This document shows positions 4,113-62,600 of a stretch of DNA of 64,000 nt, one piece after another. The notes below the pieces were generated by a model. That model did not search any database. It was not told the origin of the DNA and worked only from the letters and a program-made list of their open reading frames with translations. Location of the stretch: assembly GCA_000004985.1 (NCBI GenBank), contig GG738878.1; one strand, written 5' to 3'. Made by a program: the position numbers and the translations under genes. Positions within the stretch are counted from its first letter, which is position 1. Each line of letters opens with the position of its first letter. The DNA is from Naegleria gruberi (taxonomy: Eukaryota).

Positions 4113-6207
4113 ATGTCACTCTCAGAATACGTACGTCGGGAAGATTTAAAAACACTTTATGCTCTTCCTATGAAGGAAGCAAGTAAAAAATTAGGAGTGA
4201 GTGAAAGTAGTTTGAGAAATATTTGTAGAAAACACAACATTGAACGATGGCCATGTATGTAAATTACTTTACAATAATATATTTAATACTATTTAATAAT
4301 ATTTAATAATAATATTTAATAATATTTAAAAATTACAAAAAATAATTGAATCGTTCCAAGATCGTAAATTTCAACAATTAGACGCTCACATTGCCTCATT
4401 GCAAAATGTCGAAGTTTCACAACAATCTCAACAACAAAAAGAAATGATTGAAAGTTTATTAAGAGCTCGATCAATTCTCGAAGATAATCCAAACATGACA
4501 TGTGAAATGGCAATTCTACAAGCTAACAAACAGTTACTGGCCAATAATCCACAAAATGGATCTCAGGTTCAAGAAATGACAGCTCAAATGATGAACATGA
4601 TGAATCAGAATCCATCAATGGATGATGCTTCTCCAACCATTAGTGAAAATTCATCACTTCATCATTCAATGGGTGGTGGTGTTGGTAATAATAATAATAA
4701 TTTGGATAATTCTTCAAATCAAATTCAACGAAGTCCAATGCATCAGCATCATCATCATGGAACAACGTTTGTGCCAAGTTATCCAACTCATGTTACTTCA
4801 CATTTGAGTGCTAGTGCTGCATTGAGTGCAATGGCTAGACGAAAGAAACATCCACAATATGTTTCGAATAATGCAGCTTCGTCTTCTATATTAGATACTT
4901 TGGATCAACAATCTAGATCTACATCCATGTTTTCAGTTCAATCCAATCCAACAATTGAAATTCAACAACCAAATAGATTTACAGATTCTGATGTCATGAA
5001 TCCACAACATCATGCCTATTTGCATCATCAGACAATTCTCAATTCTCATAATCCACATATGAGAAGTGTTTCCTCTGATAATATTTTCCCATCAGCATCG
5101 AATGGAATGATTGGTGTTGGTAATATGCAAGGTAATTCTTCAATGGAAATGATAACAAATATGGGTGAGAGAAGAGGAGCTGTTTCACATAGAGATTCAT
5201 TGGCTTTTGGACAGGGATTTGTGTTGGTCAATCAGGGAAGTGGTGGTTCAGTGATGGACGAATCGAATGAGTCCTCCACCACAGCAAGTGAACAACAATC
5301 AGTTTATTATAATGGTGAACTATCTCCACAACAGCAATACTCTCAACAACAACACAATAATGGAATGATGTTTAATGAGTATCAATTATTGGATCCAAAT
5401 GTGAAATCACGACACATTTCTCTATTGAAACAACAGAGAAGACCACCTCCACAACCACCACGTTCACTCTCCACTTCAACTGCACTCTCACCAATGCCCA
5501 ATTTAAATTCCTCTCCTCAACTGCAGCCACAATATCAATCACCAAATGCCTCCAATAATAGAAGTAGCAATTCCATGATGCAAGATCTTCAAATTAATAA
5601 TAGAAAATTCACATCGACAACGACACCACCTTCCTCCTCACACAATTCATCACTGAGAAGTAGTTCAGCATCTCACACAGATTTTGATTCACCTTTTATA
5701 GATATTATGCAATCAGATCAGGAGGGAGATATTTCAATGGGTGATAATTTCCTTTCTTCACCTTCAATTCTAATTAATAATAGATTATCTGATGATCAAA
5801 ATTCAACTCATCCTTTCCAAAGAACAAGTCAATCTTCACTAACGAGTCAAGTTTCATTGAATAGATATTTACTAGATTCACCTAATCATCACGATTTTGA
5901 TTTTGTTTCAAAACAAGAACAACGTGAGAATAATCATAGAATCTTGGAAGCTTTGAGAATAACACCAACTACACCATCAAATAATTCTGTTGGTAGTAGT
6001 GTTAATAATCTGTATGATCCTCTATTTGATAGTAATGCCTTCTTAAGAGGAAGAACAAGTTCAGTTTCGTCTACTTTCTCAGATGGTATGTCAACTCCAA
6101 TGACTCCAACAGGAGAAGGTGGAAGATTGTCAAATGCATCAAATTTAAGTTTAAGACTTTCACACGGCATGAATTCTGATTTTAATTTTTCCAATAACAA
6201 TTATTAA
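4113..6207 (+). CDS. RWP-RK domain transcription factor with a long Q/N/S-rich low-complexity C-terminal region (2 exons: 4113..4254, 4361..6207)
   Basis: Exon 1 encodes MSLSEYVRREDLKTLYALPMKEASKKLGVSESSLRNICRKHNIERWP. GTATGT donor at 4255 and acceptor ...ccaag at 4360. Splicing restores RWP-Y-RK in frame with track ORF 4399..6207. Confidence 0.8.
4262..4330. repeat. AT microsatellite (aatatttaataat)n inside the RWP-RK gene intron
   Basis: Direct reading: atttaatactatttaataatatttaataataatatttaataatatttaaa. Confidence 0.6.
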
Positions 6208-47549: not shown

Positions 47550-48957
47550 ATGAGTCCAACAAATTCGATATACCAGCAGAAGTGGAGAGTCTCATCACAA
47601 TTATGTATCATGATGATGATGATGGTAATTTTCTGTTGCACTAGATTGGAATATATTAAAGCCAATACTCCAATAATTCGATATTTAAATTTTGATACCT
47701 ATTATACGATGGATTCAAATTCAACTCTTCAATATGGTTTCAAGGTTGGGAAAGATCAAGAGAATTTAAGAGTGGCTGAGGGTTGTGAAATACTGCTTTC
47801 CTTTCGCTCGTTAAATGAAGAATCGAATTTAATTAACATGTCTTTGAGTAGTCTTCCATCTGAATTGTTCAGCAAGTATTATCCATCTACTATGGCAGAA
47901 ATTTATTCGATACAATTTGATGCCAGTAGCTTGCAATATCTCAATAACACCTCTATGGAATTCAAGCACCACTGCCCGAACGGAATTGCAAACGCAAGGT
48001 TAGGAACCTTATCTGCATATACATTTACAAATGATCGTTTTTTAGCCACCAGTGCGCAGCATGGACCTGTAGAAACAACCTTATTAAGATTTCCAATGAT
48101 TTCATTAAGATTATTTGGTGATAGGCTGATTATTGGCATTCACTTGTCATTCATCTTGAGATCCACTGTATTGAATCAGCAGAAATATATCTATGGTCCA
48201 ACAGAACTAGAATTTAACCTCCAACTTTATCACAAATTGGTTCTTAACATGCCATCCATTGCTTCAACAGTTGTGGGGACAGTTTTCACAGTTAAAGAAA
48301 CAAAAAAGGAATCACAAGCGTTTACTCCAGAAGGCTACTCTACTCTCTTTTCACTTGGATTGGTTGGTGGAGAAACCTCAAAGGCAACATTGAGGTATAC
48401 ATTCAGTTCTCTGGTAATACTTGATGCTCTGGGATCATATGTAATGTTTAAACCAAGGTACTCTAATCAGCTATGGACATTTCTTAGATACTCTTCCTTA
48501 TCCTGGAGAAAAAGTATTTCGTGTCAAAATGCCAGCCATTTCGACTGTGAGAATTAAAAACATTGCTGCAACCTATGGATCTTTCACAGTAAGGTTAAAG
48601 AGAATGAGTCCACCTACATCTTATTCGTATGAACAATCAGAGTTCATAACAGCCAATATTGCAACAGCAACCAATTTTGAAATTTTGAATCTTGACTATG
48701 TGGAAACAAATCTCTTCATTTCCCTTGATCCAAACACTCATTCATTTTTTGGATTCGATATTGAAGTGCAGAGAAATGTGGTTGGACAGTTTGCGTTTGT
48801 GGTTTTAGGGGTAATACCTATTTTGTTCACTTTGTTCATAAGTGTTGCAATTATTATTGTGCTTGTTACAATTAAGCGAAATTCTTCAACTTACCGTTAT
48901 AAAGAAAGTGAACTCTTACAAAATAATGAAATGGACTCAATAAATAGAGATTTATAA
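47550..48957 (+). CDS. Predicted type-I membrane protein (signal peptide, large ectodomain, single C-terminal TM); two overlapping ORFs 47550..48557 and 48529..48957 related by +1 frame break at TAA 48555-48557
   Basis: N-term MMMMMVIFCCTRLEYIKA hydrophobic. C-term TM FAFVVLGVIPILFTLFISVAIIIVLV. No GT..AG pair of >=40 nt can join the frames. Confidence 0.4.
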
Positions 48958-52864: not shown

Positions 52865-54347
52865 ATGCAGCAAAGAAATTCTTCATTCACCGTGGAAATA
52901 TTTCAACAAGAAGTTTTGGATTACCTATCGGAAAGTTTAATGTTGAAGGAAAAACATGGATCGGAAGAATCTAAAAATTTACTTGTTAATTCTCTGTTGA
53001 GACCTCCATCCATATCAACCATTCGAGTGAATACTTATCATTATAAAAAAGGTGGAAAATTCTCAAGTCATGATGAAATTATGGAACAAGCAAGGAAGGA
53101 TTTGGAAACAATTTTTCAAAACAAGTACAAGGTTGAGAGGAGTCCAAATGTTGATGATTGTTTGGTGATCCCTGTTAATGAACTCTCACCAAATTATTCA
53201 AATATTTCGGATCAATGTATGTAATCACTTATGTAATTAATTGGAATTTATTGAAAAAGATATTGTTGTGGATAGAAAATGTGGAGAAGCTGTACTGAGA
53301 GGAGCTGATGTATTTGCTCCAGGAATTTTGGGAATTTCAAAAAATTGTCATTCTGGATCTGAAATTGCAATTCTATGTGATATTTCTTCTCAAACAAAGA
53401 AGGGATTCAGATTTGAAAAAACCATTGAGGAAATGATACAAATTGATGAAAATACCAAGTACCAGAATTTCATCTATGTTGGAAATGGAATTTTGAAAAT
53501 GGACAGGACCAGTATTTTCCAAGCCAATGTAAAGGGAATTGGATTGGAGGTAACCCAACCATTCTATGAGACCTGCTCCTTGAATGAAATATCTCAAACA
53601 TATTACAATGAATTTTTCGCTCAAAATATTTGCTCCATGGTGGTAGCTCACCTTTTGGATCCAAAAAAGGGAGAAAAGATTTTGGATATGTGTGCATGTC
53701 CAGGTGGAAAAACTACACACATTTCAAATCTTATGGAGAATGAAGGTGAATTGATTTGTTGCGATAGACAGAAAGGAAAGGTTGACCTATTAAAGAAATT
53801 GAGTGAAAAACTTGGTTATTCAGTGATGAAACCAACAGTCCTTGATGGTACAAAGGCAACAAGAAGAGTTAACACTGATTCTTCTGAAAATCAAAAATCA
53901 AAAAAGAGAAAGACCAATGAAGAACAAGTATTTTTAGAGGAGAATTATTTTGATAGAGTATTGGTGGATGCACCATGTTCTGGACTTGGACAAAGACCTA
54001 CCCTCTCATTTAAGGAATTTTCATTGGATTCTCTCAAAAAGACAGCTGAATATCAACGAAAGATTTTGGCAGAGGCTTTCAAGGTTTTAAAACCTGGTGG
54101 TATTCTTGTCTTTTCCACATGTACCATCAGTCCAATGGAGAATGAAGAAAATGTTTTGTGGATGCTTGAAAATTTCCACTCTAAAATTGAGTTATTGACA
54201 CCCAACATGACAGCTTTTGCCAGTGAAGGTCTTTCATCCATTATTTCTGATTCTTCAATACGGAGTAAGGTCCTTCGATTTGATCCAGTAACAACTCCTG
54301 AAACTATTGGGTTCTTTGCTTGCAAATTCAAAAAACTTTCCAATTAA
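52865..54347 (+). CDS. NOL1/NOP2/Sun-family RNA cytosine-C5 methyltransferase with PUA-like domain (NSUN6-like); 2 exons (52865..53216, 53260..54347)
   Basis: DIVVDRKCGEAVLRGADVFAPGI (PUA). LDMCACPGGKTTH, VLVDAPCSGLGQRP, GGILVFSTCTISPMENE (m5C MTase motifs). GTATGT donor at 53217, 43-nt intron, acceptor aaaaag at 53259. Confidence 0.75.
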
Positions 54348-54554: not shown

Positions 54555-57500
54555 ATGGCAGCAATTCATCACACGCTTCCACTTTACAAATTGGTGACGA
54601 CGGGAAGGATAACAAGGATGAGTGGTTTTTTCATGATGATTTTAATGGTGGCCATTGCTGTTGTTGTTTTCATGAGAGTCGATGTGGTGCAGAGTAAAAG
54701 ATATGACCTGTCCCAACAATATGATCAGCAACAACTCACTGATGATTCCGAATTGTTTGTTAAAGTGTCGTCTGTGGATTATGAAAGATGGATGATGCAT
54801 CAACCTAATATCGAAAAGGTTTATAGACTTTCAAAGAGAATAAGGAGAGCCAAGGCAGAAATTGATTACAAAACAGAATACCTCTATGTTTTGGGTGAAG
54901 ATCACAATGGTGGTGCTTCTTTTTATATGGATGCGAGTGAGGAAATTATTCCAAAACATGCCAATATTTCAGTAGTATTTGATTATTTGGACGAAGCATT
55001 GGAATATGTCCATGAAAATAAGGATGATCCCTATTTACACAGATTTGTGGTTATTATGCAACAGGGTATTCACAAAGTGAAGGGTAATGAAGCAAGAATT
55101 TCTAGACCTTTCACTTCTATTGTTTCGGAGGACCCAAGATTTCCAGATAGAACCATTATCAGAGCCAATGATATCAATGGTCAGGTGCTTTTCATCGATT
55201 CAACTCATAACATTACAATTAAAGGTGTCACTCTGACTGGTGGGCACTTGGTAAATTTGAAGTTTTCTCACAAGAATGTTCCAAAACCTTGTGGTAGTGG
55301 TAGGTAGTTGACAAATTAATCCATACTGATAACAATTCTCTCAATTTATAGGTTTATTAATTTCTGCTTCAAGCAATATTTTGGTAGAATCTGTATTGTT
55401 ACAAGCAAATAAGGCTGCTATTGGTGGAAGTGTTTGCATTTACAACTCAACTGTTGTCAACTTCCACAAATGTTTCATTAAGAATAGTGTTTCATTCATT
55501 AGAAATATGCTTCTTACAGATAGCTTGAATGGTTTACAATTTTCTGAAGCTTCCAATTTCAATGTTAATAACAGTATTTTTGCTCAAAATTTACCAGCTT
55601 CTAATGATCCAGAAGGTATTTATGGTTGTGGTGGTGGTTTGGGAATATTCAACTCAAATCAAACCATATTTTCTTCATGTGTTTTTGCCAACAATACTGG
55701 TAGGTAATCTATCTTAATAATTTTACTTATTCTAAATTATCAATAGCAATTAACGGAGGAGCCATATTTACAGTTAATTCTTCATTCACTGTAACCAGTA
55801 GCAGAATTAGTGGAAATACAGCTTATAATCAAAGTAGTGGAATTTATAGTGATTGGAATAGTGAGGTTTCCATTGACAAGGTTTTCTTCTTGGAAAATAG
55901 ATGTGTTAGATTGACCTGTAAGATTATCTACTCACCAAAGAAGGAATATTTGGACGATATTTCAAGCTTTAGAGAAGTTGTTTTCCCTGCTATTTGTATT
56001 ACTGGAATTATTCTTTCCATTGGTTTGGGCTTTATTGGTTTATTCGAATTTATTAGAATGGTCAAGCAGAAAAAAAGATGGAGCAATGTAGTTTGGGGAG
56101 ACAAGATTTATTTGTGGCTTTTAGGTGCTTTGGGTATCTATAGGCCTTATGGATCTGTTCCAAGACCTTACAATTGGTTCCACAGAACCCTTATAGTACT
56201 CATTCTCGTTTTGAGTTGCATTCTTCAAGGAATGCAATCAGCTGCAGTTATGCCAGAAGTAAGTTTTCTTTTATTTCAAAATCTTAAACTGTGAAAAGTT
56301 TTTTGATCAAATGGATACTGTAAGATTCACAATCAGCGCTATTCAACAAGTAGTTTTCAATTTCATTCCTCTTGTATGTTATATTGCATTGATATTGGCT
56401 GTTAAGGCAAGCTACAAGAGATTGTTTGTCAACTACAAACCACCAATTCCAACAGAAGTTGAAGTTCAAGAAGAAAATGCTAGTCTCATTAACTTTTATC
56501 AAACTCAAATTGAAAAGGAAAATGAAAGTGTGAACACAGCATCTCCAGTATCTGATCTTTCTGAACAATCTTTTAGAAAAAAGAAGCGTAAGCATGCCTT
56601 TGATTGGAAGAAGGATACTCAAAAGACTGGTCTTCAAAGAAGTATCCATAATAGAAGAGCATTGGCAGGTGTTATTATTTCTGTATTGATTTTGGCATCC
56701 TCTTATGTTATTATTATTTTTGATACCATGTACTTTATTGATTCTAATATTGATATTGCAGCCACTACTAACCAACCTATTGGATTGGATACTATATCAA
56801 GTGCTATTTTCTACATGATGCATTGGCTTTTAAACATGTCAATTATGACCATGGTTTTGCTCACTGTATTCTTACTTTGTAACAGAATTAATTCTTATCA
56901 GAATACTTTCTTTGAAACATTATACCATCAGTTAGAGAGAGCTGTTTTCAATTTGCAAACTGGTGTCTACAGTTATGTTCACCTCAGAAAGGAATGGTAA
57001 GTATAGTATTTCATTTAATTTTCCAACCTATCTGATAGCAAACGTTTGGTGAGATATTCTTGGATTTTAACAATTTCCTATATTATTATTTTCAGTGGAA
57101 TGTGTGTCAATCAAGTTTTAATGGTTTTGTGGGGAGGCTCAGAATTCAAATTCTTTATCTATTATGTAGCAGTTCTTGTTGTAATGCTTGTTCTCATTAC
57201 ACACGTCAGTTATACAAGTAATCACTGGACCAGTTTCAGATTTGATGACTTTTTAGCAGCAGTTCCTCACTCAATTACCTATGATTATGGTATTTTCTTT
57301 GTAAGTTTATTGTCATACACTTTTATTTAATATATAATTTTCATAATTATCAAAAGGTTCCTGGAGCTAATAAGAAACTTTCACTTCCAAAAACTGAAAT
57401 TAATGACAATCTCAGACTCAATGATGGTGCATTCCCAGCTGGAGAAAGCAAGGATAAAGCTGAGCAATTGTTGAGAGATTTAACCTTCTTCCATATGTAC

Positions 57501-57656
57501 ATTCGAGATAGAACCTTTGCTTATCGTTTCCCACTCGAAATTCAAATGCAAACCTATGTCGTATTGACTGCCATTGGTTTATTGGGTTCCTCCTACGCCT
57601 TACTCAAATATGTTTCAAACTCATTCGAAACATCATACTATTATCAATATTTGTAG
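54555..57656 (+). CDS. Novel-architecture membrane protein: N-terminal signal-anchor, ~330-aa right-handed parallel beta-helix (pectin-lyase-fold/PbH1-like) ectodomain, then ~9 predicted TM helices; 6 exons, 954 aa
   Basis: Exons 54555..55299, 55352..55699, 55747..56258, 56299..56996, 57039..57300, 57357..57656 join six track ORFs in frame. Donors GTAGGT x2, GTAAGT x3. Introns 52, 47, 40, 42, 56 nt. Beta-helix rungs (NITIKGVTLTGGH; AAIGGSVCIYNSTVVNFHKCFIKNSVS; AINGGAIFTVNSSFTVTSSRISGNTAYNQSSGIYSDWNSEVSI). Confidence 0.65.
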
Positions 57657-58221: not shown

Positions 58222-59136
58222 ATGATGCTAAGTAATCCAAGTCCTCACATCAACATGTTGATTCCTCACCACCAACACCACCACCACCATCAGCATCAAT
58301 ATCACCACCAAACTGTTGGTCAACAACAACAGTTTAACACTAGTAATTTATCACCAAATTTAATGCAAGATAAAACACCAGAGAAAATGGTCTGTGGTAT
58401 TATACTCAATAACTGGAAATCTCGACACAATACGAAACTGTTGATGAGAAAAGCTCTCAATGATACTGATTCTATTGCTGCTGGTTCGATATTTAAATCA
58501 GCTGATATTGGTGGTGGCACAACATGTCTTGGTATTCAAAAGAAGAAAAAAACTCTTGATAACAAGGGTAAATTCAAATTTCACCAATATCAAGCTCCTC
58601 ACGGTAATGGTTTCGATTCGTTTTATTCGAATACTTTATCATGTTCAGCTCAATCTGATGTGAAAAAGGTGAATAATAAGGCACTTTCTTTGACTCACAT
58701 TGAAAGCAACAAACAATCTGTAAATAGCCACAATAGTCCATACATTGAAAAACAAGTAGTGTTCAAATTTGCAACACTTCCACATCAAACTGCCAGCCAT
58801 CATGTGAAATCAGTAAGCTCAACTGTCATTGCCTCAACCAACATGTACACCTCATGTGGTACAAGCTCTACAAGTAGCAGCACAACGAGTAGTAGCAACA
58901 CTAGTTCACAATTAAATTCAAGATCCAATCAATTAATTATGGATGATGATTATAACAATCATTATCAAAGAGTAGCTACTCTTCAAACTGCACCAATCAA
59001 TTCCAATAATAATAACAATCAGTGGTGGAATTCTTTCGAACTTCCACAAATTAACAGTTGTCATCAAGCTACAACAACTACCTCTTCAGAACCATTACCA
59101 AGTTTTTCACAATTAATAAACACTCTTGGTATTTAA
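58222..59136 (+). CDS. Low-complexity His/Gln/Ser/Asn-rich protein (poly-His tract HHQHHHHHQHQYHH)
   Basis: Single 304-aa ORF. Composition typical of Q/N/S-rich nuclear proteins. No recognisable domain. Confidence 0.35.
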   Translation: MMLSNPSPHINMLIPHHQHHHHHQHQYHHQTVGQQQQFNTSNLSPNLMQDKTPEKMVCGIILNNWKSRHNTKLLMRKALNDTDSIAAGSIFKSADIGGGTTCLGIQKKKKTLDNKGKFKFHQYQAPHGNGFDSFYSNTLSCSAQSDVKKVNNKALSLTHIESNKQSVNSHNSPYIEKQVVFKFATLPHQTASHHVKSVSSTVIASTNMYTSCGTSSTSSSTTSSSNTSSQLNSRSNQLIMDDDYNNHYQRVATLQTAPINSNNNNNQWWNSFELPQINSCHQATTTTSSEPLPSFSQLINTLGI

Positions 59137-59453
59137 ACACATTTAAAATTTGAAAATCAACCACAGTTTCTGAACTGTACTTATTATCAGATTTATCCCA
59201 TTTCTTATTTTAATATCTTTTATCTTCTCTAAAGAGATCCGTTGCAGCCTTACTTTGAAAATTTCAAAAAAATTAATAAATTAAAAAATGGAGCACAACA
59301 CACAGGTGAAAACACGTGTTTGGTGGCACTCTACTCTATTCAATCTGTATTCCCTGAGACTGGTATTAATCTCCGATATGCTACTTTCAAAATATGGGTG
59401 ATTTGTGAATTATGTCATAGTTGACTCGATGTGTGGTCTTTTTTAAAAACAAA

Positions 59454-62400
59454 ATGAAAAACTGTTATTTTGGTGATATTGTGATTGTGTGTGTTGATGA
59501 AGATGGTGATGGTGATGATCATTATTCGGAGGCTGGATATGAATTATTACAAAACCACTTAGATAGTGTAGCATGGGAAAGAGTGGAGAGGAATGAAAAG
59601 ATTTATGATCATATGGAGAGTCTAATGAAACCCTATATTTGGTCAGGTTTGGAATATATTGAGAAAAATCCATTTCCAGACAATGATTGTAAATTGGTGT
59701 TTTATAGAGTGTTGAAGAAATTTGGAGAGTTATTGGAAATGGCTTCAGATGCTATCAAGTGTGATGAACGGTTGGTTCTTAAGGCTGTTAAAAGTAAACC
59801 TTCCTCTTTGCAATTTGCAAGTTTGGAATTGAGATCAAACAGAGAGTTTGCATTGAAAGTTGTTTCGTTTAAGACTCTTCATAGTGGTTCTCCATTTGAA
59901 TTTTTGGAGAATTTTCATGGTGATTATGAAATAGCATTGTTAGCTGCCAAACAATATGGAATGGCATTGGAGTTTGTTGCACCAAAGTTGAGAAATAACA
60001 GAGATATCATACGTGAAGCAGTGGAAAATAATGGATGTGCACTACAATTTGTCCCTGAACAATTAAAAGATAGAAGCTTAGTATGGAGTGCTTTAGATTC
60101 ATATTGCAAGTTTGAATTTGTACCAAAAGAAATGGAGAATGATAGAGAAATTTTACTTAAAGCTGCCTTACATTCAAATTTGAGCAGAATTCCAGACTTA
60201 TTTCACAGTGACAGAGAATTCGTTCTTGAACTTGTAAAGAGAGATGGATGTTTATTACAACATCTTCCAATAGAGTACCAACAGGATAGATTATTTGTAT
60301 TGGAAGCTGTAAAACGGAACCCTTTTTATTTAGCTGAGGCAAGTGATGAATTTAGAGGTGACAGGGAAATTGCTTTGATTGCTTTTCGGAAAAATCCGGA
60401 TGTATTTCAATATATTTCAAATAACTTGAAAAATGATAGAGATTTCATATCAAGCTTGATATTGAATGGATATGACCTGTATAGATTACAACGGTTTGGT
60501 GTTGCACTAGCCAACGATCGAGATTTCATTTTGAGTGCGATGGATAATTGGCTTGACTTTTCAAATTTTATGGATATGGAAAATACTTACAGGTCAGACC
60601 TGGAATTATGTAAAAAACTTATCAAACTATATCCTGATTGCATACGTTATACACTATGTGAAGAACTGAAACATAACAAAGAATTAGTAATGAGCTTATT
60701 ACCTCATAGTTTGGAAATACTTGAAGACATACCAGACGAGCTGAAGAATGACAGAGAATTTATTCAATACGCATTACGGTTGCATGACAAGTCATTACAG
60801 TATGCGTCGGACGAGCTGAAGAATGATAGAAGTTTGGTAATGGAAGCCATAAAATACGATAGCAATAACTTTATCTTTGCTTCTGACGAATTGAAAAATG
60901 ACAGACAAATTGTAGACTATATTATTCTTCAAAATGCATCTTTAATTGAATTTGCCTCCAAGTCCATTAGAAATGAAAGAGAAATTGTATTGAAAGCTAT
61001 CAAAAATTCATTTACTGATATTTCTCAATTTTTAGGTTATGAAATTATGGAAGAAAGAGAAATAGTCTTGGAGTGTGCTAAAAGGTTTGGAGGTTTGGAG
61101 CATCTTATAACCGAGTTTAGAAATGATAGAGAAATTGTTCGACATGTTATTCAAAATAATAAGGGTGAACAGCTTACTTATGCATCTGAACATTTACGCA
61201 AGGATCGAGAAATGGAGCTAATTGCAGTAAGGAATGGGCTGAGTTTGAAGTATGTCCATAACAAAATAGACAGGGAAATTGTATATGCTGCCGTAAATCA
61301 CTATGAAAGAAACGTTAAATATATACCAGATGAATTCATGAATGATGAGGAAATTATCTTACTATCTGCTAATTATCGTAATTGTTTAGATTACACTGGA
61401 GAACAATTGAAATCAAATAAGGAATTTATTAGAAAATTGATTTCAAAAAATGGTTGTTTATTATCAGATGTAGCAAGTGAGCTGAAGGATGATAAAGAAG
61501 TTGTGATGGATGCTGTGACTTCAAATGGCTTATCACTACAGTTTGCTTCACAATCAATGAAAGAGGATAAGGAAATTGTTTTGTCAGCTGTAAAATCCGA
61601 TGGACAAGCTCTGTCCCACGCCCCTGATCATTTTAAAAATGATAGAGAAATGATAATTTCTGCAGTTGATCATGGGTTTGCGGAATTTGATCATGATTAC
61701 ACTGCAGATAGAGAAATAGCACTAAAGGTAGTGAATAGGGATATTTTTTATTTCGAATACACAAAGGAACTGAGAATGGATAGAGATTTCATATTACAAA
61801 TAGAAAATCCAAATTTCTCCCTTTTATCAATTTCCCCTAAATTAAGAAATGATAGAGAAATAGCTTTTAAGGCGTTGGACATGGATGGGAATGCTTTATT
61901 GTACGTCTCTGACGAGTTGAAGAATGAATTTAAAAACGATCGAGAAGTATTGTTAAGAGCAATTGGAACTAATCAAATAGCATTTGTTTGTGCCTCAGTT
62001 GAGTTGCAAAATGATGAAAAGTTTGTATTAGATTCGGTCTCAGTGAATGGAATGGTATTGAGATATTTACCACTCAAATTCAAGGATAATAGACAAGTTA
62101 TTTTGAAAGCTGTTCAAAATAATGGTTGGGCACTCTTTTACGCACCATCAGAATTACTTCAGGATAGAGAAATAGTAATGAATGCCATAAAGAATACTGG
62201 TACTTCATTGGAATATGCTCCTTTCGAATTTAGAAACGATAAGGAAATTGTTTTAGAGGCAATTAAAACCAATGTGGAATCTTTACAATCGGCTTCATAT
62301 GAATTACGGAATGATGAGGAATTTATTTCACAAGCTATGGATATTGATATTGAATCTCTTCAATATGCCAATTATTCACTGAGATATAATATTGATTTTC

Positions 62401-62600
62401 TTACAAGAATGAATAAGGAAAATAGGATTATTCAAGGAGCATCAGAACAGTTACAAAAAGTTATTGACATGAATGGATTACTACAACAATTCAAGCAGGA
62501 GACAACTAGCAAAATCTACAACTTCAATCCCATTACTTTATGGACAATTTCAATTTTATTAGTGGCTTTATGTTGTGGAATCAAATTATATAATATTTGA
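59454..62600 (+). CDS. Tail-anchored protein made of ~30 tandem ~30-aa DUF4116-like repeats (LKNDREIVLxAVKxNGxALQYAS)
   Basis: Repeats such as ELKNDREFIQYALRLHDKSLQYASDELKNDRSLVMEAIKYDSNNFIFASDELKNDRQIV. Single C-terminal TM ITLWTISILLVALCCGIKLY. Start taken as first ATG (MKNCYFGD). Track ORF begins at alternative start 59421. Confidence 0.55.
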   Translation: MKNCYFGDIVIVCVDEDGDGDDHYSEAGYELLQNHLDSVAWERVERNEKIYDHMESLMKPYIWSGLEYIEKNPFPDNDCKLVFYRVLKKFGELLEMASDAIKCDERLVLKAVKSKPSSLQFASLELRSNREFALKVVSFKTLHSGSPFEFLENFHGDYEIALLAAKQYGMALEFVAPKLRNNRDIIREAVENNGCALQFVPEQLKDRSLVWSALDSYCKFEFVPKEMENDREILLKAALHSNLSRIPDLFHSDREFVLELVKRDGCLLQHLPIEYQQDRLFVLEAVKRNPFYLAEASDEFRGDREIALIAFRKNPDVFQYISNNLKNDRDFISSLILNGYDLYRLQRFGVALANDRDFILSAMDNWLDFSNFMDMENTYRSDLELCKKLIKLYPDCIRYTLCEELKHNKELVMSLLPHSLEILEDIPDELKNDREFIQYALRLHDKSLQYASDELKNDRSLVMEAIKYDSNNFIFASDELKNDRQIVDYIILQNASLIEFASKSIRNEREIVLKAIKNSFTDISQFLGYEIMEEREIVLECAKRFGGLEHLITEFRNDREIVRHVIQNNKGEQLTYASEHLRKDREMELIAVRNGLSLKYVHNKIDREIVYAAVNHYERNVKYIPDEFMNDEEIILLSANYRNCLDYTGEQLKSNKEFIRKLISKNGCLLSDVASELKDDKEVVMDAVTSNGLSLQFASQSMKEDKEIVLSAVKSDGQALSHAPDHFKNDREMIISAVDHGFAEFDHDYTADREIALKVVNRDIFYFEYTKELRMDRDFILQIENPNFSLLSISPKLRNDREIAFKALDMDGNALLYVSDELKNEFKNDREVLLRAIGTNQIAFVCASVELQNDEKFVLDSVSVNGMVLRYLPLKFKDNRQVILKAVQNNGWALFYAPSELLQDREIVMNAIKNTGTSLEYAPFEFRNDKEIVLEAIKTNVESLQSASYELRNDEEFISQAMDIDIESLQYANYSLRYNIDFLTRMNKENRIIQGASEQLQKVIDMNGLLQQFKQETTSKIYNFNPITLWTISILLVALCCGIKLYNI

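Follow-up and report, generated by a model that had tools for sequence, protein, structure and literature searches.

A lineage-restricted Naegleria protein that joins a parallel beta-helix ectodomain to a polytopic membrane domain

The DGF-1 protein of Trypanosoma cruzi is described in a 2026 preprint as comprising a signal peptide, seven right-handed beta-helix "ribs" of ~390 amino acids each, an Ig-like "hat" and 7–9 membrane helices. A review gives DGF-1 8–9 membrane helices and describes bodonin of Bodo saltans as an ectodomain followed by seven C-terminal membrane helices. Dictyostelium SadA, which functions in phagocytosis and in adhesion to the substrate, has about nine membrane helices together with a signal sequence and an extracellular domain (PMC2173991, PMC3279395). 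Here we describe NAEGRDRAFT_69413, a gene at positions 54555–57656 (+) of a 64,000-nucleotide stretch of Naegleria gruberi contig GG738878.1 (assembly GCA_000004985.1; the whole stretch is referred to below as the window). Its product joins a single parallel beta-helix to a membrane domain that probably consists of eight helices, and we consider it a candidate adhesion or sensing receptor. A preliminary description, made from the sequence of the window, had presented this architecture as undescribed, a claim that has to be given up in view of DGF-1 and bodonin, which are comparable.

Joining six stop-free tracks across five introns rebuilds a coding sequence of 2865 nt that encodes 954 amino acids, with exactly the six exons, 40–56-nt introns and product length first proposed for it. 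The RefSeq protein XP_002675349.1 (UniProt D2VKJ3; 933 residues, "predicted protein") is 100% identical to residues 22–954, the sole difference being the start codon, Met22 (54618) in RefSeq and Met1 (54555) in the window model. All five splice junctions pass without a break through the alignment with the N. lovaniensis orthologue C9374_000983 (P0001; 980 residues, 66% identity), and homologues show 20–66% identity along their whole length, more than chance would give. On the splice rebuild, the RefSeq identity and the orthologue alignment, the locus is a single, intact and conserved N. gruberi gene.

The fusion of beta-helix and membrane domain is real and independent of splicing, because it is present in three uninterrupted reading frames. 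Exon 3 (55747–56258) is one open reading frame (ORF) that runs from beta-helix rungs (…NGGAIFTVNSSF…) into the first two membrane helices, TM1 and TM2. In a divergent homologue from an environmental eukaryotic contig (L002; 831 residues, 31.5% identity, E=2e-119; JGI metagenome 3300062347, contig positions 4678–7275), the signal peptide, the beta-helix and TM1–TM5 all lie within one exon of 646 amino acids. The most distant homologue (P0009/P0011; 955 residues, 20–25% identity, varying with the compared span) comes as a complete MMETSP transcript ORF, uninterrupted on a 3.5-kb transcript-like contig. It could be argued that the beta-helix and membrane ORFs are separate genes or that the locus is a pseudogene, and the window itself comes without transcript data; nothing else speaks for such an artefact. 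Besides the three uninterrupted frames, the identical RefSeq model and the 54–66% identity kept across Naegleria and Willaertia, with a frame that is never disrupted, stand against it, and we treat it as excluded, with a residual probability that is vanishingly small. The L002 gene has only two introns (50 and 52 nt), which share no position with those of N. gruberi, the first lying six codons upstream of N. gruberi intron 4. Its neighbours encode RGS-domain and NIT-domain proteins.

The product of NAEGRDRAFT_69413 is predicted to enter the secretory pathway by way of an N-terminal hydrophobic segment, either a signal peptide or a signal anchor (residues 22–40; 54618–54674 (+); Kyte-Doolittle peak 2.63). 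The preliminary description had called it a signal anchor; the hydrophobic signal stands, but the segment looks more like a cleavable signal peptide, given the small residues at positions −3 and −1 in orthologues and the RefSeq start at Met22, with an uncleaved anchor being possible. Cleavage would probably follow VVQS (residues 44–47). All full-length relatives have an equivalent hydrophobic segment, in most cases followed by small residues (VEA, MEA, TNA). A start at Met1 adds a basic N-region of 21 residues, and since the N-regions that precede the hydrophobic core in orthologues are 17–24 residues long, their lengths favour Met1 over Met22 as the probable start. The N-terminal cap that follows (residues 41–114) is poorly conserved and poorly modelled.

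Beyond the cap lies a parallel, right-handed beta-helix at about residues 115–430 (54897–55943 (+), spanning introns 1 and 2), as judged by AlphaFold2 (AF2), Foldseek, Pfam and profile comparison. For structure prediction, and for the exhaustive phmmer search reported below, the query was the N. lovaniensis orthologue, standing in for the window protein. AF2 models this orthologue with regular, short, stacked strands at about residues 140–430, at a predicted local distance difference test score (pLDDT) of 70–91. The significant or near-significant Foldseek matches in the PDB are all parallel beta-helices; the best is Rhombotarget A (PDB 9cdu, E=5.6e-4), after which come pectin lyase A, PL6 lyases and tailspikes. 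In Pfam, PF13229 matches a family member at E=3.9e-8 and PF02415 matches two at E=4.5e-4, the window protein itself giving no PF02415 match in hmmscan even at E<=10. A profile of the family matches bacterial PF02415 (Chlam_PMP), "outer membrane repeat" and "choice-of-anchor Q" proteins with E values of 1e-20 to 1e-4, and the corresponding Pmp-type motifs can be read in the window protein as GGAIF, FAQN, FANN, FNSN and FIKN (repeated GGx[IL] and FxxN). The PbH1-type beta-helix of the preliminary description is borne out by the orthologue model, Foldseek and PF13229, and the motifs quoted in its support are located at residues 219–230, 273–286 and 368–380.

The extracytosolic region of the window protein (residues 41–445) holds eight N-glycosylation sequons and seven Cys. 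Each family ectodomain has 6–11 sequons and 6–10 Cys, as compared with 0–2 Cys in each of the cytosolic loops. We conclude that the protein has an extracytosolic domain of ~400 amino acids, containing Cys and predicted to be glycosylated, the core of which is one right-handed parallel beta-helix of the Pmp/"choice-of-anchor Q" type. Among six homologues 35 ectodomain residues are invariant, 22 of them Gly, Ser or Asn. Only one invariant residue is an Asp and none is Lys, Arg, His or Glu; because of this composition, the pattern of invariance reads as the signature of a structural solenoid and not of a conserved catalytic site.

Past the ectodomain the protein has eight strong hydrophobic segments and a weak one of 12–13 residues (485–497). 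All nine had been counted as membrane helices in the preliminary description; the nine segments are there, but eight membrane helices are likely and the best supported, because the weak segment has too few residues to cross the membrane and the positive-inside rule is violated once it is counted. A nine-helix topology, which would place loops with 17, 7 and 11 Lys/Arg outside, was rejected on these grounds. With eight helices the loops predicted inside hold 44 Lys/Arg and those outside two, and both ends of the mature protein are predicted to be extracytosolic. TM1 (residues 446–464; 55989–56045 (+); from hydropathy, in exon 3) would run from outside to inside, starting ~15 residues (431–445) past the last beta-helix rung in the same exon. 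TM2–TM8 then make up a predicted unit of seven helices, N-terminus inside and C-terminus outside, with inside loops of 86, 50 and 98 residues and outside loops of 19, 29 and 7.

Within this unit, the helices from TM2 to TM7 are placed by hydropathy and the family alignment. TM2 (residues 514–532; 56193–56249 (+)) and TM3 (552–570; 56347–56403 (+)), which carries the family-invariant P559, are followed by cytosolic loop 2 (571–656; 56404–56661 (+)), whose 86 residues include 17 Lys/Arg and a polybasic RKKKRK. This is the long charged loop that the preliminary description had placed, correctly, between the fourth and fifth hydrophobic segments of its nine-segment count; its length is a feature of Naegleria and Willaertia, the distant relatives having a short loop here, and the long loop of the MMETSP protein comes after TM1 instead of after TM3. 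TM4 (657–675; 56662–56718 (+)) and TM5 (705–729; 56806–56880 (+); invariant F706 and W711) lead to cytosolic loop 3 (730–779; 56881–57072 (+)), the most conserved segment, which spans intron 4 and holds invariant N730, F752, Q755, G757 and V762. TM6 (780–798) and TM7 (806–824) are separated by an outer loop of seven residues (together 57073–57207 (+)). Directly before TM8 lies a conserved amphipathic helix, KAEQLLRDLTFFHMYIRDRTFAYRFP (residues 889–914; 57456–57533 (+)), with an invariant Pro at its end; F900, Y903, F909, Y911 and P914 are invariant in all six full-length proteins and are also conserved in metagenome C-terminal fragments, and an AF2 model of the membrane region alone sets this helix apart as well (model residues 482–499). 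TM8 (923–941; 57558–57614 (+)) is followed by an aromatic C-terminal tail of 13 residues (57615–57653) predicted to lie outside. A cytosolic YxxΦ sorting signal in this tail (YQYL) was considered and rejected: under the eight-helix topology the tail is outside, and distant members do not keep the motif.

The six full-length homologues show the same helix order in an L-INS-i alignment. Eight helices are detected in most of them, a fixed hydropathy cut-off missing one or two in some. A comparison of TM1–4 with TM5–8 found no internal duplication. Pfam assigns no membrane family to any of nine members, including the G protein-coupled receptor (GPCR) and SWEET families that the preliminary description had named as assignments that would make the protein unremarkable, and sequence and profile searches of the PDB gave 0 matches at E<=10. 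AF2 reaches a pLDDT of only ~51 in the membrane region, whether this is modelled within the full-length protein or on its own from an alignment curated by hand. The membrane core thus appears to belong to no named family, as had been suspected from the outset, and the phmmer search, which returned family members only, agrees.

That search compared the membrane region of the orthologue exhaustively with 1.84 billion representative proteins and gave eight matches, all members of the family: Willaertia magna, a fragment from the N. fowleri cluster, metagenomic Naegleria-like fragments, the L002 lineage and the MMETSP protein. No bacterial, archaeal, animal, fungal, plant or amoebozoan protein was matched, and a scan of metagenome loci gave no confirmed further relatives. 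Relatives were detected by sequence in Naegleria species and Willaertia and, beyond these, only in one environmental eukaryote and one MMETSP protist. This distribution rests on the exhaustive search, since absences in word-index searching are unreliable: the word-index search missed the N. gruberi RefSeq protein, Willaertia and N. fowleri, and with the membrane region alone it returned nothing, not even the N. lovaniensis orthologue. A family-profile search missed Willaertia, N. fowleri and the MMETSP protein, though all three were in the query.

Conservation within the family is unevenly distributed. Compared with N. lovaniensis, N. fowleri and Willaertia, in that order, the window protein is 46, 47 and 22% identical in the N-terminal cap and 70, 70 and 64% in the beta-helix, and reaches 94, 96 and 88% in cytosolic loop 3 and 85, 81 and 73% in cytosolic loop 4; the membrane helices are ~47–74% identical to those of the two Naegleria. 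Across the six full-length proteins 68 alignment columns are invariant, and those in the membrane half include P534, D538 and D541 in the first outer loop and P559 in TM3. Judged by these comparisons, the three large cytosolic loops and the helix before TM8 are the slowest-evolving parts of the protein.

We favour, at about even chances, the reading that NAEGRDRAFT_69413 encodes a receptor for adhesion or sensing that is specific to the heterolobosean amoebae. The enrichment of sequons and Cys in the ectodomain, together with the distribution of Lys/Arg between the two sides of the membrane, argues for an extracytosolic beta-helix, which would serve, as in other Pmp-type adhesins, to bind a surface, a glycan or a particle without catalysis. 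The membrane domain, whose cytosolic face is near-invariant, might then relay ligand engagement to conserved intracellular partners, and through them to signaling, the cytoskeleton or trafficking. A faster-changing outside combined with a fixed cytosolic face is what would be expected of a receptor with conserved intracellular partners, and SadA sets a precedent among amoebae for adhesion receptors that are polytopic. Several points weigh against this reading. A literature search on the family accessions found no citing paper. Polysaccharide lyases and hydrolases, too, typically have beta-helix folds and account for most of the weak Foldseek matches, and the conserved polar residues in or near the membrane (N730, Q755, D538/D541 and an H823-V-S motif) exceed what an anchor needs. 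The low-confidence membrane models give no structural support to a receptor over other roles; the eight-helix domain could be a channel or transporter, and the protein could sit in an internal compartment and not at the cell surface.

The fold of the ectodomain invites an enzymatic reading, in which a membrane-tethered, glycan-active beta-helix (a lyase, hydrolase or epimerase) would act on cyst-wall, glycocalyx or prey polysaccharide, with the polytopic part positioning it or exporting polymer. PL1, PL6 and GH28 enzymes, tailspikes and AlgE epimerases share the fold and dominate the Foldseek list, and the L002 homologue has a weak Pel9A-like_beta_helix match in Pfam, but the fold matches are themselves weak (E values of 3e-3 to 0.5, with query-normalized TM-scores of ~0.1) and the sequence relatives of the ectodomain are Pmp/"choice-of-anchor Q" repeat proteins, not carbohydrate-active enzymes. 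Lyases require a Lys/Arg base and Ca-binding acids, and GH28 enzymes require three Asp, which the invariant residues described above do not supply; nor did Pfam reveal a glycosyltransferase or synthase domain. We regard such an enzyme as distinctly unlikely, and the suggestion of a glycan polymerase or lyase, made in the preliminary description, finds no support here. A channel is the other functional alternative that deserves consideration: TM2–TM8 could be a subunit of the seven-transmembrane ion channel (7TMIC) type, to which the insect odorant and gustatory receptors belong, or an analogous ligand-gated subunit, with TM1 tethering the beta-helix as a ligand-binding ectodomain. The unit has the seven helices, with N-terminus in and C-terminus out, of the published screening criteria (PMC9998090), and its intracellular loops are far longer than its extracellular ones. 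In the low-confidence AF2 model of the membrane region long helices surround TM5–TM7 (model residues 275–325, 331–376 and 380–419), and the conserved helix with its invariant Pro before the last membrane helix recalls the TM7a/TM7b split. Insect odorant and gustatory receptors account for 6 of the top 50 Foldseek matches, at non-significant E values of 1.9–6.8, and the superfamily is present in Discoba as kinetoplastid GRL1. However, the longest loop lies away from its usual 7TMIC position, TM1 and an ectodomain are atypical of 7TMICs, and the low-confidence model is not recognized as one. There is no Pfam match to 7tm_6, 7tm_7 or DUF3537, and two published 7TMIC screens do not mention Naegleria in their main texts. 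An hhalign comparison with an alignment of seven kinetoplastid GRL1 sequences (eLife supplement) gave a probability of 0.35%, a weak test, as the subfamilies often lack mutual similarity. We consider a channel of this kind improbable.

A deeper question is whether the family shares ancestry with DGF-1 and bodonin, such that a protein with a single-"rib" beta-helix and a multi-pass membrane domain was already present in the ancestor that Heterolobosea and Euglenozoa have in common. The claim is one about evolution and can be combined with any functional reading, that of a receptor included. Both groups belong to Discoba and show the same domain order, the Naegleria beta-helix is about one rib long, and the DGF-1 ribs have PbH1 matches. 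Set against this, there is no space for a "hat" of ~150 residues in the ~15 residues between beta-helix and TM1, one module of ~300 residues faces seven, and a single copy in the 64-kb window faces a multicopy family. Pfam includes DGF-1 models, but hmmscan against Pfam-A returned no DGF-1 family for any member, and the rib and hat/TM hidden Markov models of the preprint have no N. gruberi match at E<=1e-5. Homology with DGF-1 and bodonin is possible but unsupported, and we hold it to be unlikely. Taken more broadly, the eight-helix core might be an unrecognized fold or family, a channel or signaling module gated by the fused beta-helix (for instance of 7TMIC type with an additional N-terminal helix), or the heterolobosean counterpart of DGF-1 and bodonin; to this broader proposal we give some weight, while still thinking it rather unlikely.

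Turning to the gene itself, the splice rebuild places the six exons at 54555–55299, 55352–55699, 55747–56258, 56299–56996, 57039–57300 and 57357–57656 (+). The window is AT-rich (~33% GC) and its spliceosomal introns are short; those of NAEGRDRAFT_69413 measure 52, 47, 40, 42 and 56 nt, and all have near-consensus ends, GTAGGT or GTAAGT at the donor and AG at the acceptor. Intron 1 (55300–55351 (+), GTAGGT..AG, phase 1) coincides with the point at which a metagenome ORF from another Naegleria (P0020) ends …PKPCGSG and reads through into intron sequence. Intron 2 (55700–55746 (+), GTAGGT..AG) leaves a junction, …FANNT|AINGGAIF, that aligns to the orthologues without a gap. At intron 3 (56259–56298 (+), GTAAGT..AG, phase 0), ORFs from three other Naegleria lineages (P0016, P0018 and P0019) end …MPE and then read through. 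Across intron 4 (56997–57038 (+), GTAAGT..AG) the junction HLRKE|CKRLV is found unchanged in the proteins of N. lovaniensis and N. fowleri. The donor of intron 5 (57301–57356 (+), GTAAGT..AG, phase 0) is read through by an ENA ORF of 100% identity (P0015), and its junction GIFF|VPGANKK is conserved. The read-through at the positions of introns 1 and 3 means that these two, at least, are conserved in other Naegleria. The ENA, Logan and JGI metagenome sets hold exon-sized pieces of this gene from several Naegleria lineages (P0015–P0020). These are calls of prokaryotic gene finders that end in intron read-through, and they inflate the apparent number of "orphan" proteins.

No paralogue of NAEGRDRAFT_69413 lies elsewhere in the 64-kb window, and its neighbours are unrelated to it: an RsmB/PUA methyltransferase, a DUF4116 repeat protein, an S15 peptidase, a DUF829 protein and an ABCD half-transporter. 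The methyltransferase lies upstream (53241–54347 (+)) and is an RsmB/NOP2/Sun-type RNA m5C methyltransferase with an N-terminal PUA domain; its ORF is listed from a TTG, and the real start is probably in an upstream exon. Downstream, an ORF of 1059 residues (59421–62600 (+)) is built nearly throughout from DUF4116 repeats (17 matched stretches, E=2.3e-204) and has a hydrophobic C-terminal end (…WTISILLVALCCGIKLYNI), so that it may be a tail-anchored repeat protein. An ORF of 304 residues at 58222–59136 (+) is rich in runs of His, Gln, Asn, Ser and Thr (HHQHHHHHQHQYHH…, SSTSSSTTSSS…) and has no Pfam match; it represents a protein of low complexity or else an ORF that arose by chance. Further upstream, an ORF of 335 residues at 47550–48557 (+) has an N-terminal hydrophobic segment and several N-glycosylation sequons, again with no Pfam match, and may be a further lineage-specific secreted or membrane protein.

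Annotations of the gene already exist for N. gruberi, N. fowleri, N. lovaniensis and Willaertia, its product being named hypothetical or a "right handed beta helix domain" protein. Its novelty is accordingly lower than first claimed, with annotation in four species, the beta-helix present in UniProt names and a similar architecture described in kinetoplastids. We prefer to regard the present work as a well-supported description of an uncharacterized gene, the further interest of which hinges on the membrane fold. The surface adhesion and sensing molecules of the brain-eating pathogen N. fowleri are poorly known. Its orthologue is 88% identical to the N. lovaniensis protein, and a conserved, lineage-restricted surface protein whose ectodomain is of the adhesin type may reasonably be put forward as a contact or prey-sensing molecule. 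As no relative was detected outside this protist group, the protein might also offer a diagnostic or drug-target epitope. The membrane core is an example of a polytopic domain of eukaryotes that defies classification by today's profile libraries and by AlphaFold run on shallow alignments. The Naegleria protein also provides a simple, one-module comparator for kinetoplastid DGF-1 and bodonin; should it prove to be their counterpart, the origin of the "beta-helix plus multi-pass" design would move from trypanosomatids to the ancestor of Discoba, against the modular-origin model of 2026.

Set beside other known systems, the protein resembles each of them in part. SadA is an amoebal polytopic adhesion receptor and, as in a looser way TM9SF/Phg1, can be compared in how it might work, and in that functional sense only: no Dictyostelium or TM9SF protein was matched when the membrane region was searched exhaustively, Pfam gave no EMP70 match, and the ectodomain of SadA consists of EGF-like repeats where that of Naegleria is a beta-helix. 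The synaptic vesicle proteins SV2A, SV2B and SV2C are likewise polytopic with a lumenal or extracellular beta-helix, and SV2A appears weakly at ranks 43–44 of the Foldseek list. The helix of SV2 is a pentapeptide-repeat quadrilateral inserted between TM7 and TM8 of a 12-helix transporter of the major facilitator superfamily (MFS), whereas the pectin-lyase-type helix of Naegleria stands N-terminal to an eight-helix domain without an MFS signature. GPCRs have seven helices, with the N-terminus outside and the C-terminus inside, and differ from a protein with a predicted eight helices and both ends outside. The 7TMIC superfamily (insect receptors, GRLs, PHTF and kinetoplastid GRL1) shares with TM2–TM8 the predicted seven-helix orientation, the pattern of loop lengths and a helix-kink-helix at the last segment.

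For the ectodomain, the closest relatives are bacterial. Chlamydial Pmp proteins, bacterial "choice-of-anchor Q" and "outer membrane repeat" proteins (PF02415, PF13229) and Rhombotarget A share rungs of the GGA[ILV] and FxxN type with the Naegleria family; proteins of the Pmp type are its only ectodomain sequence relatives outside the family and, through Rhombotarget A, its best structural match. As a rule they serve as adhesins or surface proteins and not as enzymes, and they are anchored by autotransporter barrels, by sorting signals or not at all, but are not known to be anchored by an eight-helix alpha-helical domain such as that predicted in Naegleria. For the architecture as a whole, the closest likeness is to DGF-1 and bodonin, with which the Naegleria protein has in common a signal peptide, an extracellular right-handed beta-helix with PbH1/pectin-lyase-like signatures, a C-terminal set of 7–9 helices (probably eight in Naegleria) and a place in Discoba. 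Compared by sequence and published description only, DGF-1 differs in its seven ribs, its hat, its length of ~3400 amino acids and its massively multicopy nature, whereas the Naegleria protein has one beta-helix and no hat, and carries the design in 954 amino acids.

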